From assembly GCF_003726035.1 (NCBI RefSeq), contig NZ_QICD01000007.1, forward strand, positions 68,127 through 100,126: a stretch of 32,000 nt of DNA. The letters are read 5' to 3'. Source of the stretch: Paraeggerthella hongkongensis (lineage in GTDB: Bacteria > Actinomycetota > Coriobacteriia > Coriobacteriales > Eggerthellaceae). The position numbers and the translations under genes were made by a program. Each line of letters starts with the position of its first letter. Position 1 is the first letter of the stretch. The notes beneath the pieces are model-generated. The model was given only the letters and a program-made list of their open reading frames with translations. It was not told the origin of the DNA and ran no database searches. This document shows, in pieces, positions 1,659-19,268 of the stretch.

Positions 1659-1686
1659 GGAGCGGTTTGGCGATCATGATGACGAC

Positions 1687-1710: not shown

Positions 1711-2019
1711 CGCCACTGGGGCGTTTTCGCTGCGCCTTCACCCGAGCCGTGTCAATGCTGGTCTAGCACGGAGAAGTCGGTGCTTAGGTACAAAATCACC
1801 GGTCTGCGCTCTTGGGCAAGGGCTTTCGACAACTGTCGAATCCGCTGCATCTCGGTGAGCTGGCTCGTTGATGCAAGCGCACAAAACGAATGCAGGCGAT
1901 GAGCAGATCCAGCAGCGCAGACCCGTGATTTTGTACCGCGAATGGGTCGGCCTCCATGGCAAACCAGCTTCCGGTACGCCGAGGGCTTCCACGACCGAAA
2001 GACAGGCGAGCGCGCTTGG

Positions 2020-3087
2020 CTACGACACGGTCCACGTGCCCAGCAAGGCCAGGTGGTCGGTGCCCTTCACGTTGATGGTCTGCAGGGAGCCAACGGACAT
2101 GCCGCTGTTCTTGGAATAGACGATGTGGTCGATCTCGATCATGGGCGGCACCGGCAGCATGGCGTAATCCGGTTCGGACGGATACGTCATATGGAAGCCC
2201 TCCCCCGCTTGCTGCGAGGCGTCTACCAGCGTGTCGCCGAGCATCTTGCGATAGCGCGAATGGTCCCACGTGGAGTTGAAATCGCCCATGATCAGGTATT
2301 CGTCGTCGTACTGGCGAAGCGAGCTCAAGTTGCGCAGGCTCTCGTTCCAGAACCCCCGCGTGCCCGACTTGGGCGACGTGGGATGCGTGCTGACCAGACG
2401 CACCGCATGCGAACCGGCGCTTATGGTGGCGGCGGGGACGGCGGACCCCGTGACGGGAAGGATGCTCGAGGAGACGTCGCTCATGGGAGCAAGCGAGTAG
2501 AGGACGTTCACGCCGCCGTTGTCGTAGGGGCCGGGCTCGCCGAACACGTGAGACGGAAGCAGTTCGTCGATGCCGGCCGCGGCAAGCCGCTCGATCAGCG
2601 AGGCGCTGACTTCCTGGAGCGCAAGGACCTCGACGCGCTGGTCGCGCACGATCGAGACGATCTGATCGGCATCGGCCAAGCCGTTCTTGGTGTTGAGGGT
2701 CATGATGCGCATGACGGTATCGGCAGACGTCTGAACGGGAACGGGCTCCACCGCCTTCGGCGCTATGCGCGAAGCGGGCAGGAAGAACCCTACGTGCCAG
2801 AAAACCTGGCAGACCAGGCAGAGCGCCGTGAATGCAGAAAGCGCTTTTCTCCTGGTCAGAAGCGCAGCAAGAAGCACAAGCGCACTTGGGATGGCAAGCC
2901 ATGGAACGAATGCGGCCACCTCGGGAATGAGCCGCCCGTTGCTGAGGACGGAAGGCGCATAGCGCGAAGCCATGAGCACGACGAGACATGCCGTCAGCGT
3001 CCATAAAAGGACGCTTGCGATCGTGCGCCCGAGGGAGCGCTTGGGTTGCGCGTTGCGGACGGCGTGTTTGCCCTCGTTCGGTTCCAT
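2020..3087 (-). CDS. Endonuclease/exonuclease/phosphatase (EEP) family protein with N-terminal transmembrane segments
   Basis: From ORF 2020..3135. EEP motifs are present: VLALQEV, GDFNSTWDH, IDHIVYS and TDHLALL. There are two or three N-terminal hydrophobic helices. The ATG at 3087 is preferred because GAGGGA lies 3 nt (TCC) upstream; the GTG at 3135 is less likely. Confidence 0.75.
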   Translation of the reverse strand: MEPNEGKHAVRNAQPKRSLGRTIASVLLWTLTACLVVLMASRYAPSVLSNGRLIPEVAAFVPWLAIPSALVLLAALLTRRKALSAFTALCLVCQVFWHVGFFLPASRIAPKAVEPVPVQTSADTVMRIMTLNTKNGLADADQIVSIVRDQRVEVLALQEVSASLIERLAAAGIDELLPSHVFGEPGPYDNGGVNVLYSLAPMSDVSSSILPVTGSAVPAATISAGSHAVRLVSTHPTSPKSGTRGFWNESLRNLSSLRQYDDEYLIMGDFNSTWDHSRYRKMLGDTLVDASQQAGEGFHMTYPSEPDYAMLPVPPMIEIDHIVYSKNSGMSVGSLQTINVKGTDHLALLGTWTVS

Positions 3088-3207
3088 GGATCCCTCGCTT
3101 TCGGCCAAGCATATGCGAAAAGGCCAATCTACCACGTTTTGGCGAACGGCGATAGCGAAGGATCGACGCGACCGGTTGAGCGGCTTGCGGCGGCGCAGTC
3201 ACGACCG

Positions 3208-4056
3208 CTACAAGCGCTCGACCAGCTTCTGCAGCTTGCGAACGAGGCCTTGCTGCAGCGGAATGCCGGCAAGATCCGCCTGATGGGCCTCCTCCACGCT
3301 GCGGATGGCCGCGCGCAGCGCACGAGCCGCGTCCTCGGCGGTTTTCGGGCGCGACGCCTTGAGGTGCGCCTTCAGCTGGCCGAGCGACATATCTTGACGC
3401 TGGTACTCCGCGAACAGGTCGCGCTGCTTTTGGGGCGGAAGCTCCGATATGGCTCGCATGGTGACGGGATCGACGGTGCCGGCTTGCGCCTCCACAACCC
3501 AGTTGTCGTCGAGCTCGCCCGTGAGGAGCTCGGCCTCCTCGCGCGTTTCGCGCAGGCGCTTCTCGGCGGCGATTGCGCGCTTGACCGTGGCGGGCGATAC
3601 CGACTGCCCCGTCTCTTCGGTCACGATGCGCGCGATGATGTCGTTTGTGCGCACTCCTTTGAGCGAGGGGTCGGTTGCGCGCAGCGCGGGCACTTCCCTA
3701 CCGATTGCCGCATAGCGAGCGCCGCGCTCCTCTTGCGATAGCCGACGCGTAACCAAGTTGGTCACGTTCAACAACACGCGGGCGCGCGCGTCGTCCAAGT
3801 CGTCGATGAGGGTCACGGGGATGGACGCGTAGGCTGGATCGTCGGCGGCCAGGCGACGATACGCTTCCAAGCGACGGTGCCCCGCAACCATCTGGTAGGT
3901 TCCGTCCGGCAGCACGCGGACGAGCGGCAACTGGCCAAGGCCTTCGGATCGAATGGATGCTACCAGCTCCTGCATCTCGCGCTCGTCCATGGTGTAGTCG
4001 TTCTCAGGGTGAGCAGCAATGCTGTCGATAGGAAGCGTTTTGGTTTGGTATGGCAT
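3208..4056 (-). CDS. ParB/Srx N-terminal domain protein (orphan ParB-like, no ParA partner in the window)
   Basis: From ORF 3208..4065. It has a GHRRLEA motif in a ParB-N-like context (LPIDSI..HPEN.., LVASIRSEGLGQLPLVRV). The ATG at 4056 follows AAGGAGA. The C-terminal half is helical and charged. Confidence 0.8.
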   Translation of the reverse strand: MPYQTKTLPIDSIAAHPENDYTMDEREMQELVASIRSEGLGQLPLVRVLPDGTYQMVAGHRRLEAYRRLAADDPAYASIPVTLIDDLDDARARVLLNVTNLVTRRLSQEERGARYAAIGREVPALRATDPSLKGVRTNDIIARIVTEETGQSVSPATVKRAIAAEKRLRETREEAELLTGELDDNWVVEAQAGTVDPVTMRAISELPPQKQRDLFAEYQRQDMSLGQLKAHLKASRPKTAEDAARALRAAIRSVEEAHQADLAGIPLQQGLVRKLQKLVERL

Positions 4057-4065
4057 GTTTAGCAC

Positions 4066-4183
4066 ATCTCCTTATTGCATATTTTTATCGTTTTATTCAC
4101 TATTTTTGTATATTAATTCTTTTATTATGAATAAATATAGTTCTCAATATTGGATATTCTTATTGCTTTTCTTTTAGGCTTTC
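4066..4183. promoter_or_regulatory. Extremely AT-rich divergent intergenic spacer, the probable promoter region for the ParB-like gene (-) and the left glycan operon (+)
   Basis: A hand count of 4081-4140 gives 8/60 G+C (13%). Many TATAAT/TTGACA-like hexamers occur, so no single promoter can be picked with confidence. Confidence 0.4.
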
Positions 4184-4208
4184 GTACGGGGTCATCGTGA
4201 CCCCGTAC
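4184..4208. repeat. Perfect inverted repeat GTACGGGGTCA-tcg-TGACCCCGTAC (11-bp arms)
   Basis: Read directly from the sequence. It sits exactly at the transition from the 13-25% GC spacer to a GC-rich segment. No flanking U-tract exists on either strand, so it is not a canonical terminator. Confidence 0.9.
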
Positions 4209-4356
4209 ATCATACCACTCCCCTTTTATCGATAATGGCGGTTATGTAAGGACGAGCGCGGAGGTTGGGGATGAGGTTGACACGGAAGCGGATGCGGCGC
4301 CGGTCGCCCTTTCGAACGAAGAGGCCGCGCGTATCCTGGCGTCGAGCAACTCCGGC

Positions 4357-5130
4357 GTGAAGGTCAGCGAGCGGCAAGCCGACCAAGCGAGGGTCTTAGG
4401 CTGTCATCTTGAGAGTTCGAAGCGAACCGAAGAATCTTCAGTCGGGGAAGCCCTCCTGCCTCGAGAAGGCCGTCTTGTCGTTATCGAGGGCCTGGACGGT
4501 TCCGGCAAAGAAACCCAGGCGAGCCTTCTGCGAAAGCGTTTGCTGAAAGACGGCATCGACCTGCGATCCCTCTCCTTCCCCTGTTACAAAAGCGACTCTT
4601 CAGCCCTCGTGCGAATGTACCTGGAGGGCAGGTTTGGCTCGAAGCCAAACGACGTCAACGCGTACGCTGCTTCGGCTTTCTACGCGGTTGACCGCTACGC
4701 TTCCTACAAGGAGAACTGGGGGGCGTTCTATGAAGCGGGCGGGCTTGTGCTCGCCGATCGATGGACCACCTCCAACGCCGTGCACCAATGCGCGAAGCTG
4801 CCGCGTTCTGATTGGGACACCTATCTGGACTGGCTCTTCGATTTCGAGTACCGCTTGATCGGGGTACCAAAACCAGACCTGGTAGTTTACCTGAGTATGG
4901 GCGCAGACGTGAGCACAAGGCTCGTCGAGGGCCGCTGCGCACGCGAAGGCACCGCCAAAGACGTGCACGAGGCGGACGCCTCTTATATGCAGCGCTGCCG
5001 TGAAGCCGCCGACTACTGCGCGGACCGCTTGGGTTGGAAGAAGGTCGAGTGTGCTCCCGAAGGCGCTCTGCGGACGATGGGAGATATTCATGAAGAGATT
5101 GCGAGGCTAGTGGAGCAAGATGGTAGATAG
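4357..5130 (+). CDS. tmk: Thymidylate (dTMP) kinase family protein with a ~35-aa atypical N-terminal extension
   Basis: It has the P-loop VIEGLDGSGKETQ, a DRWTTSN (DRY/H-like) motif, and LVRMYLEGRFG..NAYAASAFYAVDRYASYK, which is typical of the Firmicutes-type Tmk subgroup. GTG 4357 is the only conventional start upstream of the P-loop, and it has no SD. Confidence 0.75.
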   Translation: MKVSERQADQARVLGCHLESSKRTEESSVGEALLPREGRLVVIEGLDGSGKETQASLLRKRLLKDGIDLRSLSFPCYKSDSSALVRMYLEGRFGSKPNDVNAYAASAFYAVDRYASYKENWGAFYEAGGLVLADRWTTSNAVHQCAKLPRSDWDTYLDWLFDFEYRLIGVPKPDLVVYLSMGADVSTRLVEGRCAREGTAKDVHEADASYMQRCREAADYCADRLGWKKVECAPEGALRTMGDIHEEIARLVEQDGR

Positions 5131-6244
5131 AGAAATTCTTGTAACAAGGTCATCCATGCCCCCATTCGAAGAATACTGCAATGAAATTCGGGGGCTTTGG
5201 AATACTCGTTTCCTTACAAACTGCGGCAAAAAGCACGCTGAACTTGAGCAGGCGATCAAAAACTACCTGGGTGTCCAGCAATTGTCTCTATTCGTGAACG
5301 GGCACTCCGCCCTCGAGTGCATTCTCGAAACCCTGGAGCTTGGCAAAGACGGACGAAACGAGGTGATCACTACACCGTTCACATTCGCATCGACTTCCCA
5401 CGCCATCGTGCGCAAAGGACTTAAACCTGTTTTTTCCGATATTCGAGAAACCGACTACACTCTCGACCCAGAAAAAATCGAATCCCATATTACCGAAAAA
5501 ACCTGTGCGATCTTGCCAGTTCATGTGTATGGCAATGTCTGCAATCACAAGCAAATCCAAGCAGTCGCTGCCAAATACGATCTCAAGGTAATTTACGACG
5601 CCGCGCATGCGTTTGGCGTAAAGAAGGACGGTGCTCCAGTAGGCACTTTTGGAGATGCTTCGATGTTTAGCTTTCACGCAACAAAGGTCTTCAATACAAT
5701 CGAAGGTGGCGCCGTGGCCTACTCCGACGAGACTCTGGCAGAAAAGCTTTCGCAATGGAGAAATTTTGGCATTACCGGTCTGGAGTCCTGTGAATATATC
5801 GGCGGAAACGCCAAAATGAATGAGTTTTCTGCTGCTATGGGTCTGTGCAACCTTCGTTATGTCGACAGGGAGATTCGAAAGCGAAAGATAGCCGCAGAAA
5901 GGTACTTCGACCTTCTTGCATCCGTGCCGGGACTCTCGTTGTGCATCCCTCCCGCCAACATCGAACACAACTATTCGTACATGCCGGTTATTGTCGATCC
6001 GAACTTGTTTGGTGCAAATCGGGATGAAGTGCTCGCCGCTCTTGAAGAGAACCGGATTGGAGCGCGAAAATACTTCTACCCGATCATAAACGATTATGCT
6101 TGCTATCGAGGGACTTACGACAGTAGGGATACACCCGTTGCAAAGCGTATTGCCCAACAAGTGATCACCCTCCCATTATATGCGGACCTATCAACCGATA
6201 AAGTGAATCAGATTTGCGAAATAGTTAGAGGCTTGCATGGCTAA
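5120..6244 (+). CDS. DegT/DnrJ/EryC1/StrS-family PLP-dependent sugar aminotransferase
   Basis: It has the SFHATK PLP-lysine motif, NGHSALEC, TTPFTFAST and YDAAHAFG. A GGAG lies 5 nt upstream of the ATG. The gene overlaps the tmk stop. It is a paralogue of 24898..26013. Confidence 0.9.
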   Translation: MVDREILVTRSSMPPFEEYCNEIRGLWNTRFLTNCGKKHAELEQAIKNYLGVQQLSLFVNGHSALECILETLELGKDGRNEVITTPFTFASTSHAIVRKGLKPVFSDIRETDYTLDPEKIESHITEKTCAILPVHVYGNVCNHKQIQAVAAKYDLKVIYDAAHAFGVKKDGAPVGTFGDASMFSFHATKVFNTIEGGAVAYSDETLAEKLSQWRNFGITGLESCEYIGGNAKMNEFSAAMGLCNLRYVDREIRKRKIAAERYFDLLASVPGLSLCIPPANIEHNYSYMPVIVDPNLFGANRDEVLAALEENRIGARKYFYPIINDYACYRGTYDSRDTPVAKRIAQQVITLPLYADLSTDKVNQICEIVRGLHG

Positions 6245-7463
6245 ATTCGAAAACCACGAATCAAAACCACAGAAGAAGGCTCTGATTCTCAACGCCAGTC
6301 ATAACGACATGCGCATGATTCAAGCCTTAAAAGCGCTGGGCTACTATGTGATTACGATCGGGCAAAACCCCGGCCTCATTGGGGAAAAGTACGCGGATGA
6401 ATACATCTGTCAAGATTATTCCGACGAAGAGGCAACGCTTGCCCTGGCAAAGGGTCTGAATATCGATGCGATTTGCTCTTGCTGCAATGACTTTGGGGTA
6501 TTGACCGCTGCTTATGTTGCCGAGCGGCTGAAGCTTCCTGGACATGATTCTTACGAAGTGGCTCAAGTGCTGCATCATAAGGATAGGTTCAAGTCTTTCG
6601 CGCGCGAGCTCGGCATCAAAACTCCGTTGGCGAGAGTTTTCATTAGCCCACAAGCCGCACTGGAGTGGATAAAATTTCATGGTGAATATCCGCTCATGGT
6701 AAAAGCCCCTGATTTGAGTGCTGGCAATGGCATCACCAAAGTATGCAGATGGCAAGAAGCTCGGCCTGCCGTAGAATTAGCCTTTGAAAAATCCAGAACA
6801 AAAAGCATTGTTGTCGAACCTTACATTGAGGGAACCCAGCACGCCATCTGCACGTTTCTGATTGACCGGAAGGTTGTCGCAGCATGCTCCAATAACGAAT
6901 ACTCATTTATTAACCCTTATCGCGTAGAGATCGACACCTTTCCTGCTGACGGTATTGAAGCACTGCAAGACAGACTTATTGCGGAAATTGAGAAAATGGC
7001 CGAGGCGTTGCACTTGACTGACGGCATTTTTGAAATGCAGTACCATATGACCCCCGATGGTGATTTTTGGATTATGGAATGCATGCGGCGCGTACTCGGA
7101 AACCTATACAGCATCCCTTCTTCAAGCCTTATGGGATTTAATTGGGACTACTGGGAGGTGCGCGCGCGATGCGGACTTGGATGCAGAGACTTTCCCTTGC
7201 ATGCCCAACCCTCTGGGTTCTTCGCCTATAGAGCCCTCATTGCTGAGAAGAACGGTATCTACAAGTCTTTAAACGTTGCTGATAGTGTTCGGCAGTACAT
7301 TGTTGAAACCTGTATGCTTCAAGATTTTGGCTATGAAATAAGGAACCATAAATCAGACCCCATGGGTTTCCTTTTCTTTTCCTTTCCCGATAGAGAAACG
7401 ATGGACTCAGTAATGGTTGATCAATACCGCAACGTAAAAGTCGAAGTAGAGGAGTTGCTGTGA
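6237..7463 (+). CDS. ATP-grasp domain protein (putative amide/peptide ligase acting on a sugar intermediate)
   Basis: It has the ATP-grasp core YPLMVKAPDLSAGNGI...VVEPYIEG and a pre-ATP-grasp Rossmann-like N-terminus. The start overlaps the aminotransferase stop (6237/6244). Confidence 0.8.
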   Translation: MAKFENHESKPQKKALILNASHNDMRMIQALKALGYYVITIGQNPGLIGEKYADEYICQDYSDEEATLALAKGLNIDAICSCCNDFGVLTAAYVAERLKLPGHDSYEVAQVLHHKDRFKSFARELGIKTPLARVFISPQAALEWIKFHGEYPLMVKAPDLSAGNGITKVCRWQEARPAVELAFEKSRTKSIVVEPYIEGTQHAICTFLIDRKVVAACSNNEYSFINPYRVEIDTFPADGIEALQDRLIAEIEKMAEALHLTDGIFEMQYHMTPDGDFWIMECMRRVLGNLYSIPSSSLMGFNWDYWEVRARCGLGCRDFPLHAQPSGFFAYRALIAEKNGIYKSLNVADSVRQYIVETCMLQDFGYEIRNHKSDPMGFLFFSFPDRETMDSVMVDQYRNVKVEVEELL

Positions 7464-8635
7464 CGAAGTCTGTAACGCTAGGCATGGCGGGGGCAGGACG
7501 TGCTTGCGAATTGCACATGGAAGGACTTCGTCGATTCAGCGGTGTTCCCGTTCGACTGAAGACAGTTATGGCTCGTAGGCAAGATCAGCTTGATGAAGCC
7601 GTGAATCGCTGGTCGTTCGAGCAATCGACCAAGAGCTTCGAAGATATGCTCAACGATCCGGAGATCGACGTAATCGATATTTGCACGCCACCTTACCTGC
7701 ATCTTGAAATGGCGGAAAAGGCTCTTTTGGCCGGGAAACACGTCATTTGCGAGAAACCACTCGCTGGGTACTTCGGGCAAGAGGGCGATGAGGAGCCTAT
7801 TGGAGACAAGGTTTCAAAGCGCATAATGTACGAACGGCTTCTGGAAAGTATGGAAAAGCTTCGTGAGATTGTAGAAAGCTCAGAATGTAAATTCATGTAT
7901 GCAGAGAATTTCGTCTACGCTCCGGCCGTCATGAAGGCGGCAGAAATCATACGCGCGAAAGGAAGCAGGATCCTGTACGCAAAAGGCGAGGAGAGCCTCA
8001 AAGGATCAAGCTCGCACGTTGCGGGCGAATGGAGCAAAACCGGCGGTGGCACATTCATAAGGACCGGGACTCATCCGCTGTCTGCGATTCTTTGGTTGAA
8101 GCAGCAAGAGGCGCTTGCGCGCGAGGAAGACATTCGCGTGGAAAGCGTATTGGCTGACATGGGTCGCGTAACTCCCAGCTTAAGCGATTACGAGCACCGA
8201 CATATTTCAGCACATCCTCGTGACGTGGAAGATCTGGGAACCGCCATACTTTCCTTTTCTGACGGATCAAAAGCCAATATCGTTGCTTGCGATACTTTGC
8301 TCGGCGGCTCGAAGAACGTTCTCGAGCTGTACTGCAACGATGCGGCAATCAATTGCACCCTCACCATGTCAAACATCATGAGCACTTATTTCCTTGATGA
8401 GGATTGCCTTGACGGGGTCAGCATATCTGAGATGCTCCCAGCAAAGACGGGCTGGAATAACCCGTTTCTTGCAGACGAAATACTCCGTGGCTACACCGAC
8501 GAAATGCAGGACTTTATGGCATGCATTTATTACGACGCAGAACCCAAGTCAGGTTTTGATTTGGCCTACCAAACCATCAAAGTTCTTTACGCTGCCTATC
8601 TTTCCGCTGAAGAAGATAAGCGAATCTTTCTTTAA
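7460..8635 (+). CDS. Gfo/Idh/MocA-family NAD(P)-dependent oxidoreductase (sugar dehydrogenase-like)
   Basis: It has the N-terminal GMAGAGRA Rossmann motif and CEKPLA (the EKP motif). The GTG start overlaps the previous TGA (7460/7463) and has GAGGAG upstream. Confidence 0.85.
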   Translation: MTKSVTLGMAGAGRACELHMEGLRRFSGVPVRLKTVMARRQDQLDEAVNRWSFEQSTKSFEDMLNDPEIDVIDICTPPYLHLEMAEKALLAGKHVICEKPLAGYFGQEGDEEPIGDKVSKRIMYERLLESMEKLREIVESSECKFMYAENFVYAPAVMKAAEIIRAKGSRILYAKGEESLKGSSSHVAGEWSKTGGGTFIRTGTHPLSAILWLKQQEALAREEDIRVESVLADMGRVTPSLSDYEHRHISAHPRDVEDLGTAILSFSDGSKANIVACDTLLGGSKNVLELYCNDAAINCTLTMSNIMSTYFLDEDCLDGVSISEMLPAKTGWNNPFLADEILRGYTDEMQDFMACIYYDAEPKSGFDLAYQTIKVLYAAYLSAEEDKRIFL

Positions 8636-8650
8636 GGAGCACAGCCGATA

Positions 8651-9682
8651 ATGACTATGGAATTTCGTCGCCGTCTTCCGATTCCCGCAGAGGTAAAGGA
8701 AGATCTGCCGCTTCCTTCGAGATACGAGAAGAAAAAGGCGGAGAGAGATTGGGAGATCGGGCAAATTCTCCAAGGAGTGGATGCTACGAGAAAGCTGCTC
8801 GTTATCGGGCCTTGCTCAGCCGACAGGAGCGATGCCGTTCTCGAATACTGCGCAAAGCTTGCAGAGCTTCAGGAGAAAGTGAAGGACAAGCTGCTGATCA
8901 TTCCCCGCATTTATACCAGCAAGCCTCGAACGACAGGAGCTGGCTATAAAGGTATGTTGCATCAGCCAAACCCCAGCAGCGGATCCGACATGTTAGAAGG
9001 CCTAAAAACCATCCGAAGCCTACATCTCAAAGTGATTCAAGAAACCAACTTGTTCGGTGCGGATGAGATGCTTTATCCATCAAGCTACAGGTTCGTATCG
9101 GACCTACTATCTTATGCCGCAGTGGGTGCGCGCTCTGTGGAAAACCAAGAGCACAGATTGACCGCATCCGGTTTGGATATACCAGTGGGAATGAAAAACC
9201 CTACGGGAGGGGATATTTCCGTCATGATTAATGCAGTGTATGCGGCGCAGCAAGGACATATGTTCATCTATCGAAACTGGGAAGTTGTGACTTCGGGGAA
9301 CCCTCTTGCGCATGCAATTTTGCGTGGCTACAAAAGATCTGACGGCAGAAATCGACCAAACTACCACTATGAAGACCTTCTCCTCCTATGTGAGGAATAT
9401 TCAAAGATGGGATTGAAGAACCCGTCGGTGGTCATCGACTGCAACCACGCAAATTCGAATAAGAAGCACGTGGAACAGCCGCGCATCGTTCGCGATGTTC
9501 TTCGCAGCTGCTCCGAGTCGAAAGAAGTCTCAACCATGATAAAGGGCTTCATGGTTGAGAGCTATTTAGAGGAAGGAAGCCAGAAGGTCGGTGGGAGTGT
9601 ATATGGGAAGTCAATAACAGACCCCTGTCTTGGCTGGAGCGGAACCGAACGTCTGATCCTAGAGTTGGCAGATGAGCTCTGA
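8651..9682 (+). CDS. 3-deoxy-7-phosphoheptulonate (DAHP) synthase, type I-alpha (AroF/G/H-like) homologue
   Basis: It is collinear with AroG-type enzymes: VIGPCS, SKPRTT..YKG, VGARSVENQEHR..ASG, VGMKNPTGG, ILRG, DCNHANS, MVESYLEEGSQ and YGKSITDPCLGW. AAGGAG lies upstream. Confidence 0.85.
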   Translation: MTMEFRRRLPIPAEVKEDLPLPSRYEKKKAERDWEIGQILQGVDATRKLLVIGPCSADRSDAVLEYCAKLAELQEKVKDKLLIIPRIYTSKPRTTGAGYKGMLHQPNPSSGSDMLEGLKTIRSLHLKVIQETNLFGADEMLYPSSYRFVSDLLSYAAVGARSVENQEHRLTASGLDIPVGMKNPTGGDISVMINAVYAAQQGHMFIYRNWEVVTSGNPLAHAILRGYKRSDGRNRPNYHYEDLLLLCEEYSKMGLKNPSVVIDCNHANSNKKHVEQPRIVRDVLRSCSESKEVSTMIKGFMVESYLEEGSQKVGGSVYGKSITDPCLGWSGTERLILELADEL

Positions 9683-10445
9683 TTCCATGTCTGAAAACTC
9701 CTTTCCAGGCTCCAGTAACTCCCTGCGAAATCGGCGCTGGAGAAAAAGATCCTTGTATGAAAGATTCGGGAAAAGGGCAATCGACGTAGCGGTTTCAGCT
9801 TTTGTCCTGGTGGTTACGCTTCCGGTCAATGCGTGCATTGCGATTCGCACATATTTTGATGTGGGGAGTCCCATCCTGTTTAAACAAGAGAGGGTCGGCA
9901 TACATGGAGAGGTATTCACGTTAGTCAAGTTCCGCAATATGACCAACGAGACGGATGAGAACGGTCAGCTGTTGCTACCCGAGGACCGCGTAACTGATTT
10001 CGGGCGTTTCGTTAGATCGACGTCGCTCGATGAGCTTTTGAATTTCTGGTCGATTTTCAAAGGGGATATGTCGCTCATCGGCCCGAGGCCGCTGTTGGTT
10101 GAATATCGAGACTTATGGACGGAAGAGCACCTGGAGCGCTTGGGTGTTTTGCCAGGCCTCGAGTGTCCTACGCCTAAGAGAATCGATCATGCTATTACCT
10201 GGCAAGAGCAATTTGACAACGACGTATGGTATGCAGCCAATATCAGCCTGAAAACCGATATCAAATTGCTGGTCCGCCTCTTTTCACTGGTCCTGGATAA
10301 AGAACAGAGAAAAGCTCGGGAGGACGGCACGAAAGGCTATTTCATTGGTTACAGAGATGGCGAAGCGATCACCGAAGCCGAAGTGGATAACTGGCGAAGC
10401 AGCAGAGTGTTCTTTCCTGGCCGAAATTTGAGCGAAGATAAATGA
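9672..10445 (+). CDS. Initiating phosphoglycosyl transferase (bacterial sugar transferase, small PglC/WbaP-C-like)
   Basis: It has a single N-terminal re-entrant helix (AIDVAVSAFVLVVTLPV), then PILFKQERVG, KFRNM and LDELLNFWSIFKGDMSLIGPRP. It overlaps the DAHPS stop. Confidence 0.85.
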   Translation: MSSDSMSENSFPGSSNSLRNRRWRKRSLYERFGKRAIDVAVSAFVLVVTLPVNACIAIRTYFDVGSPILFKQERVGIHGEVFTLVKFRNMTNETDENGQLLLPEDRVTDFGRFVRSTSLDELLNFWSIFKGDMSLIGPRPLLVEYRDLWTEEHLERLGVLPGLECPTPKRIDHAITWQEQFDNDVWYAANISLKTDIKLLVRLFSLVLDKEQRKAREDGTKGYFIGYRDGEAITEAEVDNWRSSRVFFPGRNLSEDK

Positions 10446-11554
10446 AAGAGACTTCGATGAGGGTTCTAGTATACGGAATGGTCGGCACGAACAGAGGCGG
10501 TATCGAAACCTTCCTGCTGAATATGAACGAGCACATGTCAGATGGCTGTGTTTTCGATTACGTTATAGAAGAAGAGACATGCATACATGAAGACAGGGTT
10601 TTCCAAAAAGGCGGAAAGCTATTCCGAATAGCACCGAGAAAGACGCATCCGATGAAGAACGCCATCGATTCGTGGAGGTTAATGAAGAGCGCGGCGGCAA
10701 GCAATATGCCCGTGTATTTCAATTTGTCTTCATTGAGCTGGATTGTGCCCGTCGTCGAGGCGCGGTTGCTCAAGTTGGACGTATTCGTGCATGCGCACAA
10801 CTCGGAGCTCATTGACTGCAACAGCGGCTTTTTCTACAAATTGGCTAACTCAATAAGTCGATGCATTATCAAAAAAATGAGAATCCATCGATTGACTTGC
10901 TCGGATCTCGCAGCATCGTTTATGTTTGGCGACGAGAAAAACGTCTTGATGATCCACAATGCCATAGATCTGCAGAAGTTCCGCTTCAACGAAGAAGCCC
11001 GAAACAACATAAGGAAAAAACTAAATATTTATAACGACATCGTTGTTGGTTTCGTAGGAAGGATCGCCTATGAAAAAAACCCGAGCTTTTTGCTCGATAT
11101 AGCAGACAGTCTGTCGAAGCAAACCGAGAAGAATTGGACTGTCGTGCTGCTTGGAGACGGCCCCCTGCGTGAGTCGTTCGAACGTCAAGTACGAGAATCC
11201 AATTTCAAGTCTCATTTTCTATTGCTTGGCAATGTTCCTAATCCAAATGACTACATGCAAGCATTCGATGTGCTATGCCTGCCTTCGAGGCACGAAGGTT
11301 TGCCTTATGTATTGGTGGAAGCCCAAGCATCAGGACTCCGGTGCCTGGTATCCGACCGCATAACTCGCGTGGCGGCAGTCACGGATTTGGTTTCGTATTT
11401 GCCCGTAGGCCAAGACTCCGAGCTTTGGGCTGATGCGATTCTCAAACTGGAAGACAGAAACCGTTCCGTTTTCCTCGATACAATGTCTGAAACACGTTTT
11501 AACATTGATATCGAGGCGCCGCGCTTGGAGGGGATACTGCGTTCGTCATGGTGA
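10442..11554 (+). CDS. Glycosyltransferase family 4 (GT-B, retaining type)
   Basis: It has the EX7E motif HEGLPYVLVEAQASG and GRIAYEKN. An ATGA start/stop overlap links it to the previous gene. Confidence 0.85.
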   Translation: MKETSMRVLVYGMVGTNRGGIETFLLNMNEHMSDGCVFDYVIEEETCIHEDRVFQKGGKLFRIAPRKTHPMKNAIDSWRLMKSAAASNMPVYFNLSSLSWIVPVVEARLLKLDVFVHAHNSELIDCNSGFFYKLANSISRCIIKKMRIHRLTCSDLAASFMFGDEKNVLMIHNAIDLQKFRFNEEARNNIRKKLNIYNDIVVGFVGRIAYEKNPSFLLDIADSLSKQTEKNWTVVLLGDGPLRESFERQVRESNFKSHFLLLGNVPNPNDYMQAFDVLCLPSRHEGLPYVLVEAQASGLRCLVSDRITRVAAVTDLVSYLPVGQDSELWADAILKLEDRNRSVFLDTMSETRFNIDIEAPRLEGILRSSW

Positions 11555-12765
11555 AGAGCCGCATACAGAATTCTATCTCCAGTATAAGAGTGGCGGATCT
11601 CCTTGTTTTTCTGATCGCGCTCTTTTTCTTCAGACCTTCTTTGTTTGAAAAGTATGAATCGCTTAACATGGGTTTCAATCTTGGATTGATCGCCCTGCTC
11701 GCGCTTTACCTCGTCATTGCTTCTTTGAAAAACAAGACCGGAGTTACGGTTTATTCCTGCATGGCTGTAGGTTACTTTCTACTCTTGCTCACCTCGACGT
11801 ATATCAATGATGGGTCTTTAACTAGATCGATGATGTATGTAGGCGTGGGAATCCTGAGCGTTCTCGTATTCGCAAGCATCTTCAAGTACGAGATGGCGGC
11901 ATTTTTGAACTCCATGCAGGTACTAGGCCTTATCTTCATTCCTTTAAACCTGCTGACAATGCTTGTGATCCCCGGTGGCTTCACGAACAACGGCGTGCAC
12001 CCAGTTTTTCTACTGGGTCAGGCTACCAGATTCATCTATTTCTTTTTGCCTATCTTTGTTTCCCTGTTGGTTCGCGATTATCGAAAAGGGACGCATCCGA
12101 GCAAATGCACGATAGCTCTATGGATTTGCGCGGAAACATCCCTTGTTATTGGGCAGACAGCTGCAGGGATAGTCGTGGTCTCGGCGCTTCCGTTGTTTAT
12201 CTTGCTTTTGGGCAATCGCTTTGCAAAAACACTATGTTCTCCGCCAGTCTACCTCGCGGTTCAGCTCACCCTGTTTTTTATCTTAGTGTTTTCTACATTG
12301 CCAGAACAGACCTTAGGTCTGCTGCAATCATTGTTCCAGAAGGATGCAACACTCAGCTCAAGAACGTATATATGGGATAAAGTTATCCTGCAGACTGAGT
12401 CAAACCCTCAGCAGTTCCTGTTCGGTTTTGGAGTACTTCAGAACAATGAGATGATCGCGCTCTTTAATTTTGTTCATTGTCATAATCATCTGCTTCAAGT
12501 GCTGTTTAATGGAGGTGTCGTAAGCCTGACGATCTTTATCACGCTGATCGGCCTTTCATACTGGGAGTTGATGAAGACCAATTCGGAAGCCACCTCTCGA
12601 ATTATATCGTTTGGGATATTCCTCTTCTCTATAGCACTATTGTTCGACACCGTTGATGGCGTTCGAAACTACTACCTTGTCCTATTGATCCTAGGTAGCT
12701 GTTCGAAATACATAAGTCAGTGCGATGACTATTCTCTTCCAAAGCTAGAACGAGGTGATAGATGA
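11548..12765 (+). CDS. wzy: O-antigen ligase/polymerase-domain (Wzy_C-type) polytopic membrane protein, the likely repeat-unit polymerase
   Basis: It has about 10 or more hydrophobic helices. SSRTYIW and HCHNHLLQVLFNGGVVS resemble the Wzy_C/O-antigen ligase domain. The gene overlaps its neighbours on both sides. Confidence 0.7.
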   Translation: MVKSRIQNSISSIRVADLLVFLIALFFFRPSLFEKYESLNMGFNLGLIALLALYLVIASLKNKTGVTVYSCMAVGYFLLLLTSTYINDGSLTRSMMYVGVGILSVLVFASIFKYEMAAFLNSMQVLGLIFIPLNLLTMLVIPGGFTNNGVHPVFLLGQATRFIYFFLPIFVSLLVRDYRKGTHPSKCTIALWICAETSLVIGQTAAGIVVVSALPLFILLLGNRFAKTLCSPPVYLAVQLTLFFILVFSTLPEQTLGLLQSLFQKDATLSSRTYIWDKVILQTESNPQQFLFGFGVLQNNEMIALFNFVHCHNHLLQVLFNGGVVSLTIFITLIGLSYWELMKTNSEATSRIISFGIFLFSIALLFDTVDGVRNYYLVLLILGSCSKYISQCDDYSLPKLERGDR

Positions 12766-13883
12766 AAAAAGTAGGAATCGTGACGCTGCATCGTTCTTAT
12801 AGCTATGGCGCCTGCTTGCAGGCATATGCCACGAAACTGGCAATAGAACAGATGGGGTGTAATGCAAGCTTCGTAAACTATGTAAACGAGAACGAGCAGT
12901 ACCAAAAACGCTTCGTATCACGACGACGAGATCATTCCTTTAACCAGAACGCGGTGGCTTCGCTAAAAAATATTATGTTAGGTCGCATACCTAACGAACG
13001 CAAAGCTTTCGATCAATTTCATGAAGAGTTCCTCCCGTCTTTAGATGAGACTTCCAACATGGCTTCAATAAGTTACTCCAATTTCGATATTTTATTATCT
13101 GGAAGCGATCAATTATGGAATCCAGAACTGTTTGGTGGACTGGATCGAGCTTATTTTCTCCAATTTGGGAATTGTAGGAAGATTGCGTATGCAGCTAGTG
13201 CGGGAAGCTACAGGTATTCGAAAGGCGAACTGGCTACTTTGGAAAACTATCTGGCAACATATAACCAGATTAGCGTACGAGAAGCCAATCTGAAGAGCCA
13301 AATCTCCAAAATAGTAGACACTCCAGTTGAAGAGGTCTTGGATCCAACCTTCTTGATAACTGGTGAAGAGTGGCTCGACCTCGCAAAGAAGCACGGTTCC
13401 TTTTCGCATGGCAAGCCCTATGTATTAGTTTATTTGGTTGGTGTATCGAAAGCTCATTATGAGATCGCTTATGCGAAAGTGATCGAAGAAGTCAAGAGAC
13501 GCTACGGCTGCGAAGCTCTTTTGATTAGGTCGGATGGAATCAGCTTCTCCGGATGCGACAAGAAGCTTAAGAGGATTACCCCATGGGATCTGATTCTAGC
13601 TATCTCAAACGCAGAGTTAAACATTGCAAGTTCTTTTCATGGGGTGGCATTCGCAGTTAACCTTGGCGCCAACTTCATAGCATTGGATAATCCAAGCAAC
13701 CCTTTACGAGTGCAAAATCTTCTTGCCGATACCGGTCTGGAGTGGAAGCGATATGCTGATACAGGTAGTGTTTCCTCCTGCCTCGATAAGCCAAGCTATG
13801 CAGAGGTTGGTAGGAGAGTTGATGAAGCAAGAGCGAAATCACTCGGATGGCTTTCGCAGGCTTTAGATTGTCAGAGTTTCTAG
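12762..13883 (+). CDS. Polysaccharide pyruvyl transferase family protein (CsaB/WcaK-like)
   Basis: It has the N-terminus KVGIVTLHRSYSYGACLQAYA, the GSDQLWNP motif and SSFHGVAFAVNLG. GAGGTGA lies upstream. Confidence 0.8.
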   Translation: MKKVGIVTLHRSYSYGACLQAYATKLAIEQMGCNASFVNYVNENEQYQKRFVSRRRDHSFNQNAVASLKNIMLGRIPNERKAFDQFHEEFLPSLDETSNMASISYSNFDILLSGSDQLWNPELFGGLDRAYFLQFGNCRKIAYAASAGSYRYSKGELATLENYLATYNQISVREANLKSQISKIVDTPVEEVLDPTFLITGEEWLDLAKKHGSFSHGKPYVLVYLVGVSKAHYEIAYAKVIEEVKRRYGCEALLIRSDGISFSGCDKKLKRITPWDLILAISNAELNIASSFHGVAFAVNLGANFIALDNPSNPLRVQNLLADTGLEWKRYADTGSVSSCLDKPSYAEVGRRVDEARAKSLGWLSQALDCQSF

Positions 13884-13924
13884 ATTGCTTATGTTTGCCA
13901 AACGTGTCGACAAGGAAGCGATAG

Positions 13925-15712
13925 GTGCTTGATATGTATACGACAATGAAAAATGTTCAAATATTGTTAAGTCTGCTCAAGCAACGCGGAATTTGCAGAG
14001 TAGTTCATTCTCCCGGTGGTAGCAACGTGGCCTTATCCCGCTCCATACAAAACGACCCCTTCTTTATCGAATACTCGGTAGTGGACGAGCGAAGCTCGGT
14101 GTTTTTCGCAATGGGTCTTGCGATGGAGCTTGACGAGCCCGTCGTTGTTTTATGTACTTCAGGAACCGCAGTAACAAACTTCTCTTCCGGTATGGCGGAA
14201 GCATATTACAAGGGAGTCCCGGTTGTCGCAGTGACTGCAGACAGAAGCACGTATCTTCTAGATCAGCTTGAGACCCAGAAGCTCAATCAGACCGACATAT
14301 TCAAATCGATAACTAAGTGCGAGGTGACACTGCCTGTTGTTCAGACGGATGACGACGCTTGGTATTGCAATAGACTGGTGAATGAGGCTCTGCTGGAGCT
14401 CTATCATCATGGAGCAGGTCCTGTTCACATTAATGTTCCCACCGTGGGCAGTAATGGTGGCTTCTCAGCGATGGAGTTGCCTTCTCAGAGGATGATCACA
14501 AGGTTGACCATTGAAGATTCTGCGGAGGAATGGCTCACGAAGAGAGACGAGTTGCTTTCTGCGGAGAAAGTCCTTGTTGTCATGGGAGAAAACGGACGGT
14601 ACTCTCAGGATGACCTGAAGGCCATTGAAAAGTTTGCGATCGCTTACGATTGCGTCGTTTCGGTAGAGCACATGTCGCCCTACAAGAAAGAGCGCTCTCT
14701 GATCACCTATCGCGCAACTGAGGCGATGACTTCGAGCGCGTTTGAGCCTCTCGTTCCAGATCTAGTGATCAATGTCGATGGCAACATCGCTTCGGTCAAT
14801 CTAAAAGACTACTTGAGGCTTAAACGGGGTAAATTCCGGCATTGGTCCATTATGCCAAATGGAAAAGTGCGCGATGTGTTCAAAGGGTTGACGGATATAT
14901 TCGAATGCTCCCCGAGGTATTTTTTCAATCGTCTCGCCGATCTCGCTGATAGTGTAGAGAAAAATAGAAGCGACTATTACGTACTGTGGCAGGAAGCTGT
15001 CGAGGCGGTTGAGATGCCCGAACTTCCTTTATCGCATTTGGCCGTAGCAAAAAGCCTAGCTTGCAGAATACCCGAGAATTCTCTTCTAGAGCTTGGAATC
15101 CTCAATTCCACCCGCACCATGCAGTTTTTTGACCTCGATCCAAGCGTAAAAGTTTCGAGCAATATCGGTGCATTAGGCATTGACGGCTCCTTATCGACTT
15201 TGATAGGTCGCTCTGTTGCAACTGATGCGTTGTCGTTTATCATTCAAGGTGACCTGAGTTTCTTTTACGATATGAATGCCTTAAACATTCGCCACGTTCC
15301 CTCTAATTTGCGAGTACTCGTTGTCAACAACGGAGGAGGTGGCGAATTCCACATCGGCATGAATCCTGATGAAGTTGACGACATGGATACCTACTTGACT
15401 GCCGCTCATAGCACGCGTGCTGAAGGGTGGGCTAGATCTCGAGGGTTCAAATATCTATCTGTCAATCGTGAGGGCGAGCTGGATGCTGCAGTAGATGAGT
15501 TTGTTTCGCCCGATTCAGAAGCTCCGGTTTTCCTCGAAGTATTCACGAGTAAATTTGATGATGCAGAACTACTAAAACGCTTCTACAAGAATAACAGTGG
15601 AGCGTCGCTAAAGGAGCGGGCTCTTGACGAGGCGAAGCAATTCGCGAAGTCGAATTTCTCTGGAAAATTGTTCTCTGCAGCTTCCCGCCTCGGCAAACAT
15701 AATAGAGCCTGA
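13925..15712 (+). CDS. Thiamine-diphosphate enzyme of the MenD (SEPHCHC synthase) family
   Basis: It has a three-domain ThDP layout: DERSS (cofactor Glu), LCTSGTAVTN, VTADR, SNIGALGIDGSLST and the ThDP motif GDLSFFYDMNAL...VLVVNNGGGGEF. The GTG 13925 start follows AAGGAAG; alternative ATG starts are at 13934 and 13946. Confidence 0.8.
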   Translation: MLDMYTTMKNVQILLSLLKQRGICRVVHSPGGSNVALSRSIQNDPFFIEYSVVDERSSVFFAMGLAMELDEPVVVLCTSGTAVTNFSSGMAEAYYKGVPVVAVTADRSTYLLDQLETQKLNQTDIFKSITKCEVTLPVVQTDDDAWYCNRLVNEALLELYHHGAGPVHINVPTVGSNGGFSAMELPSQRMITRLTIEDSAEEWLTKRDELLSAEKVLVVMGENGRYSQDDLKAIEKFAIAYDCVVSVEHMSPYKKERSLITYRATEAMTSSAFEPLVPDLVINVDGNIASVNLKDYLRLKRGKFRHWSIMPNGKVRDVFKGLTDIFECSPRYFFNRLADLADSVEKNRSDYYVLWQEAVEAVEMPELPLSHLAVAKSLACRIPENSLLELGILNSTRTMQFFDLDPSVKVSSNIGALGIDGSLSTLIGRSVATDALSFIIQGDLSFFYDMNALNIRHVPSNLRVLVVNNGGGGEFHIGMNPDEVDDMDTYLTAAHSTRAEGWARSRGFKYLSVNREGELDAAVDEFVSPDSEAPVFLEVFTSKFDDAELLKRFYKNNSGASLKERALDEAKQFAKSNFSGKLFSAASRLGKHNRA

Positions 15713-15717
15713 ACCCA

Positions 15718-17115: not shown

Positions 17116-17142
17116 TGGGGCCGATATAGACATGGAGGCAAA

Positions 17143-19257: not shown

Positions 19258-19268
19258 AAGAAGTCTTT

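Follow-up and report, generated by a model that had tools for sequence, protein, structure and literature searches.

A DAHP synthase (DAHPS) gene located in a glycan operon of Paraeggerthella hongkongensis has, as sequence comparisons across many genomes strongly indicate, been captured by a horizontally mobile glycan-decoration cassette and is not a passenger housekeeping gene. The enzyme is ordinary, and its interest lies in its wiring to glycan decoration. The core of the cassette would be a specific Gfo/Idh/MocA ring dehydrogenase (Gfo) and a carboxylate-activating ligase, usually accompanied by a DesI-like DegT aminotransferase. On balance, we lean towards a role for this DAHPS as a dedicated supply of DAHP for an acid that is processed by Gfo and amide-linked to an amino sugar. 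The stretch of DNA that was analysed, referred to here as the window, is 32,000 nucleotides long and contains the following features.

4001-20000, no strand: low-GC island with the glycan operon (GC computed along the window)
4357-5130, plus strand: thymidylate-kinase-like (TMK-like) P-loop protein, first gene of the operon (Pfam Thymidylate_kin, 56.7 bits)
5120-6244, plus strand: DegT-family PLP aminotransferase, DesI-like, cassette member (Pfam DegT, 317.6 bits)
6237-7463, plus strand: ATP-grasp ligase, PurD/GARS-like, cassette member (Pfam GARS_A, 33.7 bits)
7460-8635, plus strand: Gfo/Idh/MocA oxidoreductase, signature gene of the cassette (Pfam GFO_IDH_MocA)
8651-9682, plus strand: type Iα DAHP synthase (profile matches, alignment to solved structures, complete catalytic site)
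9672-10445, plus strand: initiating phosphoglycosyltransferase (PGT), Bac_transf (Pfam, 156.2 bits)
10442-11554, plus strand: GT4 glycosyltransferase (Pfam Glycos_transf_1, 89.3 bits)
11548-12765, plus strand: Wzy-like polymerase (Pfam Wzy_C, 36.7 bits)
12762-13883, plus strand: polysaccharide pyruvyl transferase, a separate module with the MenD-family gene (Pfam PS_pyruv_trans, 86.9 bits)
13925-15712, plus strand: MenD-family ThDP enzyme, outside the DAHPS cassette (TIGR00173, 228 bits, cut-off 244)
15718-17115, plus strand: Wzx flippase (Pfam Polysacc_synt, 60.5 bits)
17143-18213, plus strand: SDR/epimerase-like protein, last recognisable gene of the operon (weak N-terminal Rossmann matches only)

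The DAHPS reading frame starts with ATG, has no internal stops and encodes 343 amino acids, of which residues 6-343 are covered by matches to family profiles, namely Pfam DAHP_synth_1 (PF00793; 160.6 bits, cut-off 25.5), NCBIfam NF009395 (356.7 bits, cut-off 343) and TIGR00034 aroFGH (267.2 bits, cut-off 173). Together with an end-to-end alignment to the solved structures of AroG, AroF and other type Iα enzymes, these matches agree with the AroG-type collinearity proposed in the initial annotation, and the motifs listed there were all found and could be mapped onto the catalytic residues of E. coli AroG. The metal ligands C55, H266, E303 and D324 correspond to C61, H268, E302 and D326 of E. 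coli AroG and are invariant in the type Iα copies from the cassette (29 of 29) as well as in the other related copies (81 of 81). The PEP site (R86, K91, G159-A160-R161, K182 and R225) and the phosphate site for erythrose-4-phosphate (E4P; P92-R93-T94 in the motif KPRT) are also those of AroG, and all 14 catalytic positions compared are identical to E. coli AroG, as is the case for 28 of the 29 cassette copies. Altered substrate specificity was rejected because every active-site position is the same as in AroG, and profile searches found no KDO8P synthase or NeuB match for this protein. Judged by these residues, it is a catalytically ordinary type Iα enzyme that would condense PEP and E4P to DAHP. 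Most of the positions that form the Phe site in AroG are changed (examples are P150 to Y, Q151 to R, S180 to D and S211 to Y); since most of them also differ from AroG in aroC-linked relatives, E. coli is no guide to the regulation of this clade.

The operon, which comprises 12 genes including that for DAHPS, lies in an island whose GC content (0.43-0.54 at positions 4001-20000) is lower than that of the surrounding backbone (63-65%); values are 0.63-0.65 at 1-4000 and 0.59 at 20001-22000. The genes from that for the TMK-like protein to that for Gfo overlap by 4-11 nt (11 nt at the DegT start), the gap between the Gfo and DAHPS genes is 15 nt, and the DAHPS stop (9682) overlaps the ATG of the PGT gene (9672). 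This arrangement is as initially described, including the DegT, ATP-grasp and Gfo/Idh/MocA genes upstream, and profile searches of the window's open reading frames likewise agreed that no further shikimate-pathway gene is present, the sole related item being the MenD-family enzyme. This protein matched MenD (136 bits) and acetolactate synthase (52 bits) among PDB entries. Its pairing with the pyruvyl transferase is also kept in three other loci (L150, L173 and L175), and its homologues, including a second copy in P. hongkongensis, are found in glycan loci that lack Gfo and DAHPS, in the gene order Wzy, pyruvyl transferase, MenD-like, SDR, Wzx. The MenD-family gene therefore represents an independent module, and its interpretation as a sign of chorismate-like ring elaboration or of a host men/shikimate pathway was rejected. 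The TMK-like protein scored 107.8 against the NCBIfam dTMP kinase models, below their cut-off of 193; a homologue with 53% identity follows aroC-DAHPS in a Ruminococcus locus (L081). Because no such gene was found in any other cassette locus compared, it was rejected as a member of the cassette.

The linkage between Gfo and DAHPS is conserved across phyla. Adjacent genes on the same strand were found in 35 pairs, in either order and separated by a median of 18 nt, although many B. fragilis loci are near-identical, and therefore the raw number of pairs overstates their independence; the distinct DAHPS copies among them number 19 of type Iα and five of a non-orthologous type Iβ. These pairs occur in Eggerthellaceae, in Bacteroides and on many unassigned metagenome contigs, in capsule, O-antigen or flagellin-glycan loci. 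The linkage follows the similarity of Gfo: DAHPS is directly adjacent for 29 of the 41 homologues with at least 65% identity, all 14 homologues with 60-65% identity have an ATP-grasp or AMP-ligase gene within three genes, and DAHPS accompanies none of the 26 homologues below 60%. Gfo orthologues are nearly always found with a carboxylate-activating enzyme of either type, and usually with a DesI-like DegT. The closest relative of the window DAHPS (69% identity; L001-L004) is encoded in another glycan locus, where the DegT/ATP-grasp/Gfo/DAHPS block is also present. The B. fragilis capsule loci have the order DegT-Gfo-DAHPS-ATP-grasp, with two copies in one genome; a B. fragilis strain that carries the cassette is represented by CP117955.1, with the locus at approximately 1.79 Mb. 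A full-text literature search found no published account of a Gfo-DAHPS-ligase cassette.

It appears that DAHPS activity, not a particular lineage of the enzyme, has been selected in the cassette, for three reasons: type Iβ DAHPS (427 bits against NF006421, cut-off 335) replaces type Iα in six loci, five of them directly beside Gfo; at least three supported lineages can be distinguished among the Iα copies of the cassette (bootstrap 82, 74 and 88); and one locus (L093) has a degenerate and an intact DAHPS, one on each side of Gfo. The window DAHPS groups with other cassette copies with 82% bootstrap in trees that were made by neighbour-joining only and whose deep nodes are poorly supported (63%). 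On the other hand, several cassettes are without DAHPS (L140, with the order ATP-grasp-Gfo-DegT; L118; L089; and L125/126), which suggests that the Gfo substrate must also come from primary metabolism and that DAHPS is accessory, not essential. In L123, FkbM, AMP-ligase, Gfo and a type Iβ DAHPS occur in this order with no aminotransferase match in the 8-kb flanks, and thus DegT is not needed for Gfo and DAHPS to work.

A different context was found for related enzymes outside the cassette. Among 81 such DAHPS loci from Clostridia and Bacteroidales, aroC and/or aroB was within 10 kb in 57, and Gfo, DegT or ATP-grasp was nearby in none, whereas aroC was present in none of the cassette loci. The initial annotation had listed a passenger housekeeping aroG among its hypotheses, with which a fully canonical enzyme is compatible. 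However, the low-GC island, the lack of aro genes in the window, the adjacency to Gfo across phyla, the replacement by type Iβ, the grouping with cassette copies and the aroC- or aroB-linked context of the true housekeeping relatives effectively refute this hypothesis. The window DAHPS instead has the attributes of a dedicated isozyme, being co-inherited across lineages with one specific pathway other than that for aromatic amino acids, and the island, the adjacency, the type Iβ replacement and the contrast set argue strongly for the annotation's broader proposal that DAHPS is functional and serves the glycan locus. It has been reported that E. lenta requires Trp, while Phe and Tyr are not required (PMC10234575).

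The partners of DAHPS point to the chemistry in which its product may be used. Orthologues of the window Gfo with 60-81% identity are found across phyla, for instance in L001 (81%), B. fragilis (approximately 71%) and Lysinibacillus (71%), and the index of the assembly collection lists the B. fragilis protein in over 8000 blocks. In the AF2 model (pTM 0.81), the nearest folds are KanD2/GenD2 (top), inositol dehydrogenases, levoglucosan dehydrogenase and WlbA, with sequence similarity to all solved members restricted to the Rossmann domain. The substrates of these fold neighbours are pyranoses and cyclitols, on which they act at secondary alcohols of the ring. DegT, whose homologues in the cassette loci have 42-57% identity, is most similar to DesI, both in NCBIfam (TIGR04427, 284 bits, below its cut-off of 650) and in the PDB (2po3, 190 bits); DesI is a C4 aminotransferase of dTDP-sugars whose substrate is supplied by RmlA/RmlB, and RmlA/RmlB genes are often found beside DegT in cassette loci. 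The ATP-grasp protein, with 4dim as its best PDB match (66.7 bits), shares 56% identity with its counterpart in the B. fragilis cassette, and the values for most other cassette loci are 36-53%. PurD-like enzymes of this type join a carboxylate to a sugar amine, and the cassette ATP-grasp is predicted to form an amide. The alternative ligase of the cassette is an AMP-ligase, accompanied by ACP in L089 and by KASIII-like genes in other loci; its nearest relatives (FadD13, oxalyl-CoA synthetase and MenE) are generic and thus uninformative as to the class of substrate.

The presence of a carboxylate-activating ligase indicates an amide- or ester-linked acyl substituent, and the favoured pathway would be as follows. 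DAHP would be produced by the operon DAHPS, and Gfo would then oxidise or reduce a ring position of DAHP, or of 3-dehydroquinate formed by the host AroB, to give a tailored polyhydroxy carboxylic acid. DegT would produce a dTDP-4-amino-4,6-dideoxyhexose, to which the acid would be coupled through an amide bond by ATP-grasp, and the decorated sugar would enter the repeat unit made by the downstream PGT, GT4, Wzy and Wzx. We infer every chemical step beyond DAHP, including the substrate of Gfo and the partners of the ligase. The acid could be derived from DAHP itself or from 3-dehydroquinate, which is weakly indicated as the Gfo substrate: AroB is found near Gfo in two lineages only, and it is short or fragmented at the C-terminus in one (L094/L103/L156) and intact in convergent orientation in the other (L143), so that its value as strong evidence for 3-dehydroquinate was downgraded. 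In its most far-reaching form, to which we give slightly less than even credence, the proposal is that the first committed intermediate of the shikimate pathway is diverted to the cell surface in gut bacteria, among them B. fragilis, in capsules that are phase-variable. A four-gene mobile cassette would turn DAHP into a new building block and couple it through an amide bond to an amino sugar; the building block would be either an amino-deoxy-heptulosonate or a quinate-like carbocyclic acid formed by way of 3-dehydroquinate. An amino-deoxy-heptulosonate is a seven-carbon analogue of sialic acid.

Alternatively, Gfo and DegT might act on the same molecule, with DAHP being oxidised and then transaminated to a 4- or 5-amino-deoxy-heptulosonate that ATP-grasp links as an amide. 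The oxidise-then-transaminate sequence is used on glucose-6-phosphate by NtdC/NtdA and on a kanamycin sugar by KanD2/KanS2, and since the members of each pair share one substrate, DegT might aminate a DAHP-derived ring in place of a dTDP-sugar. The top folds for Gfo, KanD2 and GenD2, are indeed dehydrogenases partnered with an aminotransferase; DegT is adjacent or near in most cassettes of the ATP-grasp type; NtdA and scyllo-inosose aminotransferases are significant relatives of DegT (113-153 bits); and the four genes would be self-contained, needing PEP and E4P only, which fits mobility across phyla. However, the closest relative of DegT is DesI, the suppliers of the DesI substrate repeatedly adjoin it, and L123 pairs Gfo with DAHPS in the absence of an aminotransferase match, and we therefore regard this route as rather unlikely. 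The amide could in this case be made through either the amine or the carboxylate; the route is a refined version of one of the initial hypotheses, in which a 3-deoxy-heptulosonic acid or its amino derivative becomes a glycan residue.

It is less likely still that the ligase attaches an aromatic end product, such as an aromatic amino acid or an aryl acid, with DAHPS lifting the shikimate flux of the host and Gfo having a separate role in sugar modification. DAHPS isozymes situated in antibiotic and phenazine clusters are an established pattern, and the unaltered active site, the cassettes that do without DAHPS and the match of an Iβ cassette copy to the NCBIfam BagF/FevY model (336 bits, below the cut-off of 700) would all be consistent with such a role. 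Nevertheless, it is Gfo itself to which DAHPS is tied, by direct adjacency and not just by being encoded in the same locus, no other aromatic-pathway gene (aroC or genes for chorismate-using enzymes) travels with the cassette, and the recruitment of only the first of at least seven steps would be odd for gut bacteria living in amino-acid-rich habitats.

The literal form of the initial hypothesis, a CMP-activated 3-deoxy-heptulosonate serving as a Kdo-like glycosyl residue, is very improbable. DAHPS and KDO8P synthase are homologous and share the same chemistry, and DAHPS is translationally coupled to the PGT. Yet when E. coli KdsB and a NeuA were used as tblastn queries against 36 cassette loci (490 kb), with a working positive control, a cytidylyltransferase of the KdsB/NeuA type was found in only one locus, one that produces a nonulosonic acid as well. 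The window had no such match, nor was a phosphatase of the KdsC type recognised, and the nearly constant partner is a carboxylate-activating ligase. The glycosyl heptulosonate of that hypothesis is thus not supported, and an amino derivative is retained in the route set out above. Least probable of all are the passenger aroG dealt with earlier and an aminoshikimate/AHBA-like pathway, for which the pairing of a Gfo-type oxidoreductase with an aminotransferase beside DAHPS does resemble RifL/RifK/RifH in outline, as initially suggested, but the DAHPS belongs to type Iα and not to type II, its E4P site is unaltered, the DegT is DesI-like, and aminoDHQ synthase, aminoDHQ dehydratase and AHBA synthase are absent from the window and do not recur in the cassette loci.

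The cassette of Gfo, DAHPS, ATP-grasp or AMP-ligase and DegT ties surface-glycan decoration to the start of the shikimate pathway across phyla, and it is found in very common B. fragilis capsule loci, in Eggerthellaceae and in many other gut anaerobes. The capsule polysaccharides of B. fragilis are immunomodulatory and have been studied intensively. If the favoured pathway is correct, it would represent a class of glycan substituent without described precedent, which might act as a new antigenic determinant, and a new way for metabolites to leave the shikimate pathway. It would also mean that the 'Gfo/Idh/MocA family proteins' of a large orthogroup acquire a function, and it would correct the annotations that assign these DAHPS genes to aromatic amino-acid biosynthesis in metabolic reconstructions and in the prediction of auxotrophies of gut microbes.

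In comparison with known systems, the window DAHPS shares its fold family, collinear alignment and metal, PEP and E4P-phosphate residues with E. coli AroG, AroF and AroH, to which it is approximately 37-39% identical, but it belongs to a separate type Iα clade of gut anaerobes and is encoded in a low-GC glycan operon, not in an aromatic-pathway context. KdsA, NeuB, PseI and LegI carry out a PEP-aldol condensation for a surface glycan, as is proposed here, and KdsA is in the same DAHP_synth_1 fold family; in contrast to these systems, no CMP-transferase accompanies the DAHPS, and the cassette product is apparently handled by a carboxylate ligase instead of a glycosyltransferase. Gfo and DegT families are found side by side, as in the window, in NtdC/NtdA (kanosamine), RifL/RifK, KanD2/KanS2 and WbpB/WbpE, whereas the cassette Gfo orthogroup is tied to DAHPS and acid-activating ligases and can be found without DegT, as in L123. 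PhzC in phenazine clusters, BagF/FevY and RifH are likewise DAHPS copies co-inherited with a specialised set of genes, presumably for precursor supply. However, those clusters make aromatic small molecules and contain further shikimate or chorismate-branch enzymes, while the cassette is without aromatising enzymes and combines DAHPS with a Gfo ring dehydrogenase, an ATP-grasp or AMP-ligase and a sugar aminotransferase. The favoured pathway can also be compared with N-acylated 4-amino-4,6-dideoxyhexoses, such as the perosamine acylated with tetronate in Vibrio cholerae O1, and an ATP-grasp amidoligase is known from the Campylobacter jejuni HS:2 capsule. The acid of the cassette would differ in stemming from the first committed step or steps of the shikimate pathway, of which the literature search found no report, but the logic would be shared: an amino sugar made by an aminotransferase and a dedicated, unusual hydroxy acid, joined by an amide bond.

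The DAHP synthase (DAHPS) gene is an intact 343-codon ORF (8651-9682, + strand; ORF check), and in profile searches its product scored 356.7 bits against NF009395 (cut-off 343), 267.2 bits against TIGR00034 (cut-off 173), and 160.6 bits against Pfam DAHP_synth_1. It aligned end to end with the solved structures of AroG, AroF, and related enzymes. When its residues were mapped onto E. coli AroG, all four metal ligands (C55, H266, E303, and D324), the PEP-binding residues (R86, K91, G159-A160-R161, K182, and R225), and the E4P-phosphate motif (P92-R93-T94) were found to be kept, and the motifs listed in the initial annotation are therefore real. Judged by its sequence, in which every testable defining feature is present, this enzyme belongs to the type Iα DAHPS family. 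The gene lies in the following operon (position in the window, strand, gene):

4357, +, TMK-like
5120, +, DegT
6237, +, ATP-grasp
7460, +, Gfo (Gfo/Idh/MocA)
8651, +, DAHPS
9672, +, phosphoglycosyltransferase (PGT, Bac_transf)
10442, +, GT4
11548, +, Wzy
12762, +, pyruvyl transferase
13925, +, MenD-like
15718, +, Wzx
17143, +, SDR-like

Successive genes between TMK-like and Gfo overlap by 4-11 nt, a gap of 15 nt separates Gfo from the DAHPS start, and the DAHPS stop overlaps the ATG of the PGT gene, which confirms the operon context first described. The window is from Paraeggerthella hongkongensis, and its DAHPS, Gfo, and MenD-like proteins each match a protein assigned to this species at 100% identity.

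The GC content of the operon is 43-54%, versus 63-65% for the genome backbone in the window; a second, minus-strand glycan locus in the window has 42-49%. The next-best relatives of the DAHPS were merely 55-69% identical to it, and a scan of the genome-contig collection gave no match above 63% identity. In a contrast set of 81 loci from Clostridia and Bacteroidales with a related DAHPS (55-66% identical), a gene for chorismate synthase (aroC) and/or 3-dehydroquinate synthase (AroB) was found near DAHPS in 57, for instance in the order aroC-DAHPS in the Ruminococcus locus L081, and such copies are true shikimate-operon genes. A homolog of the window Gfo, DegT, or ATP-grasp was found within 10 kb in none of the 81. 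A resident housekeeping gene, or the passenger aroG that had been considered, was rejected, given the low GC content of the operon, the absence of these neighbors from all 81 related loci, and the Gfo-DAHPS linkage described below. On a shikimate pathway in the host, the data that bear indirectly are those for Eggerthella lenta, which requires tryptophan, whereas its growth depends on neither phenylalanine nor tyrosine (PMC10234575).

When metagenomes were scanned with an alignment of Gfo sequences, 80 loci at 52-77% identity were retrieved, and their ORFs were then called and clustered. DAHPS was directly adjacent to Gfo in 29 of the 41 loci with Gfo identity of at least 65% (several of the non-adjacent cases being contig ends), in 4 of 14 at 60-65%, and in 0 of 26 below 60%; an ATP-grasp or AMP-ligase gene was located within three genes in 29, 14, and 1 of these loci, respectively. 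The same-strand adjacent pairs (n=35) had a median gap of 18 nt and were mostly in the order Gfo-DAHPS, with three reversed. Many Bacteroides fragilis contigs are near-identical, and the non-redundant set (<95% identity) comprised 19 distinct Iα DAHPS. Gfo homologs below about 60% (L142-L172) lay in unrelated surroundings, which included a LysR regulator, solute-binding proteins, a ThDP enzyme, and a sugar-phosphate isomerase/epimerase-like gene but never DAHPS; they probably form a separate, catabolic orthogroup, and about 60% Gfo identity is a functional boundary.

The closest DAHPS (P0002, 69% identical) belongs to another glycan locus, carried by the metagenome contigs L001-L004, in which the window's block recurs as DegT, ATP-grasp, a gene of unknown function, ATP-grasp, Gfo, DAHPS, RmlA, and a dehydratase-like gene. 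The Gfo of these contigs is 81% identical to that of the window, and Gfo is thus more conserved than DAHPS. A Wadjet (JetABCD-like) defence operon (L001 13161-19931) directly adjoins this locus. Gfo proteins of about 71% identity were found in B. fragilis and Lysinibacillus. In the index of the assembly collection, the B. fragilis protein appears in more than 8000 blocks, and its gene lies in the order DegT-Gfo-DAHPS-ATP-grasp inside capsule loci headed by UpxY/UpxZ; one genome (JANUMD010000007.1; L087 and L088) has two distinct capsule loci with the cassette, and in L087 an IS66-family insertion truncates DAHPS to 236 aa. In Lysinibacillus, an AMP-binding ligase and a carrier protein adjoin Gfo in an island for flagellin glycosylation, from which DAHPS is absent. 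In a comparison of the window proteins with L001, L086, L119, and L140, Gfo and DAHPS are nearest to L001, ATP-grasp is nearest to B. fragilis (56%), and DegT is nearest to the cassette loci L119 and L140 and to L001 (57%). This mosaic pattern implies that recombination has taken place inside the cassette.

The DAHPS of the cassette is not of a single lineage. Six cassette loci contain a type Iβ DAHPS (NF006421, 427 bits, cut-off 335; TIGR01361, 392 bits, cut-off 268), directly beside Gfo in five; the five distinct copies are 67-83% identical to each other and are not homologous in subtype to the window enzyme. The Iα copies form at least three supported groups, namely the window with L001, L093, and L011 (bootstrap 82%), eleven cassette-only copies (74%), and the B. 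fragilis pair with L094 (88%), with the split from the aroC-linked crown at merely 63% and the deep branching unresolved. Furthermore, in L093 (6907-10222) Gfo lies between two DAHPS genes, of which the upstream one is intact, whereas the downstream one, in the usual position, has RASK in place of KPRT and has lost other catalytic residues. Every other cassette copy retains the full catalytic set. Such independent recruitment or replacement beside the same oxidoreductase would be difficult to account for if DAHP synthesis itself were of no importance to the cassette; it is the activity, rather than one gene lineage, that is selected. The general idea of a functional DAHPS serving a glycan thus appears well founded, given the conserved linkage and the intact catalytic site, and the window DAHPS is very probably a dedicated, functionally linked component of the cassette.

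The partner enzymes suggest what DAHP is used for. The window DegT is closest to DesI (PDB 2po3, 190 bits; TIGR04427, 284 bits, below the equivalog cut-off), the C4 aminotransferase of dTDP-4-keto-6-deoxyglucose, and RmlA/RmlB-type genes repeatedly adjoin DegT in cassette loci. The ATP-grasp is PurD/GARS-like, a class whose members activate a carboxylate and join it to a sugar amine. Other loci contain an AMP-ligase instead, accompanied by a carrier protein in L089 or by KASIII-like and FemAB/GNAT-like proteins in further loci; AMP-ligase plus carrier is a second means of activating and transferring a carboxylic acid. The sequence match of Gfo to solved structures was confined to the Rossmann domain, and the nearest folds to its AlphaFold model (pLDDT 76.5, pTM 0.81) were KanD2/GenD2, myo-/scyllo-inositol dehydrogenases, levoglucosan dehydrogenase, and WlbA, which perform redox chemistry on a secondary alcohol in the six-membered ring of a pyranose or cyclitol. 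FkbM-family methyltransferases (cluster c4, often in tandem) lie beside Gfo in L089, L104, L107, L108, L121-L126, L136, L141, and L143, which suggests that either the Gfo-derived moiety or the sugar is O-methylated.

Taken together with the scarcity of cytidylyltransferases described below, these features point to an acyl-linked, DAHP-derived acid. DAHPS would make DAHP as the source of a polyhydroxy acid, Gfo would tailor this acid, and the ligase would activate its carboxylate for attachment as an acyl group, most likely to a 4-amino-4,6-dideoxyhexose made by DegT. We regard the full flow, from DAHP through the Gfo-tailored acid to an ATP-grasp-formed amide with the DegT-made amino sugar, as somewhat favoured. 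Cassettes lacking any DAHPS exist (ATP-grasp-Gfo-DegT in L140 versus ATP-grasp-Gfo-DAHPS-DegT in L119), and therefore the Gfo substrate must also be obtainable from primary metabolism, DAHPS being an accessory supply gene. AroB was found near Gfo in two lineages: a C-terminally short 289-aa ORF in the L094 group (294 bits, cut-off 305; fragmented in L103 and L156) and a bona fide but convergently oriented gene in L143 (361 bits). These neighbors are a weak pointer to 3-dehydroquinate instead of DAHP as the Gfo substrate. The AroB copies of the L094 group look truncated or frameshifted, with IS66 ORFs just downstream, and an HMGL-like (4-hydroxy-2-oxovalerate aldolase-like) gene immediately precedes either AroB-Gfo-DAHPS or a lone Gfo (L094 5984-10216, L103, L156, and L134 6998-7945).

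Alternatively, by analogy with KanD2/KanS2 or NtdC/NtdA, DegT might act on a DAHP-derived ring and not on a dTDP-sugar; however, in L123 no aminotransferase occurs within 8 kb of the set formed by Gfo, an Iβ DAHPS, and an AMP-ligase. A CMP-activated, ketosidically linked ulosonic residue is unlikely, since a KdsB/NeuA-type cytidylyltransferase was detected in just 1 of 36 cassette loci by a search whose positive control worked, and the ulosonic glycan residue first proposed is not supported as written.

Other genes of the window bear on its glycans. The TMK-like gene (4357-5130) scores below dTMP-kinase cut-offs and is found in no other cassette locus; a homolog (53% identical) directly follows chorismate synthase and DAHPS in L081 (11060-11719). 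Candidate roles are dTDP-sugar supply or an unrecognised kinase tied to the shikimate pathway. A conserved module (12762-18213) of Wzy, PS_pyruv_trans, and a MenD-family ThDP enzyme, followed by SDR and Wzx, has PS_pyruv_trans/MenD-like counterparts at L173 8882-12637, L175 8879-14017, and L150 13961-16920, in glycan loci both with and without the DAHPS cassette. The ThDP enzyme, named SEPHCHC synthase (MenD) by NCBI, is probably mis-annotated, because it scores 228 against a MenD cut-off of 244 and lies in a glycan operon. The minus-strand locus (22677-31979) encodes an epimerase, ATP-grasp (454 aa), DegT (391 aa), Wzx, two GT2s, a 509-aa protein without a family match, and a dehydratase fragment; this ATP-grasp and the additional one in L001 share 34% identity. 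Since this locus has its own ATP-grasp and DegT, the two appear to be a general module for acylated amino sugars, with Gfo and DAHPS supplying the specific acid.

A published description of the cassette was not found in a full-text literature search. In prominent gut bacteria its DAHPS may be the starting point of a new class of glycan substituents. The window DAHPS is not an analog of KdsA or NeuB, because profile searches gave no KdsA/NeuB-type match and a CMP-transferase partner is lacking. Nor is it part of an AHBA-type system, because it is of type I and no aminoDHQ or AHBA enzymes accompany it; the RifL/RifK/RifH-like route is likewise not supported as written. Dedication of a DAHPS to one pathway has precedents, and the window enzyme is functionally like the cluster-encoded isozymes of specialised metabolism in this respect. 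In contrast to those isozymes, its surrounding pathway is surface-glycan decoration and not an aromatic natural product.
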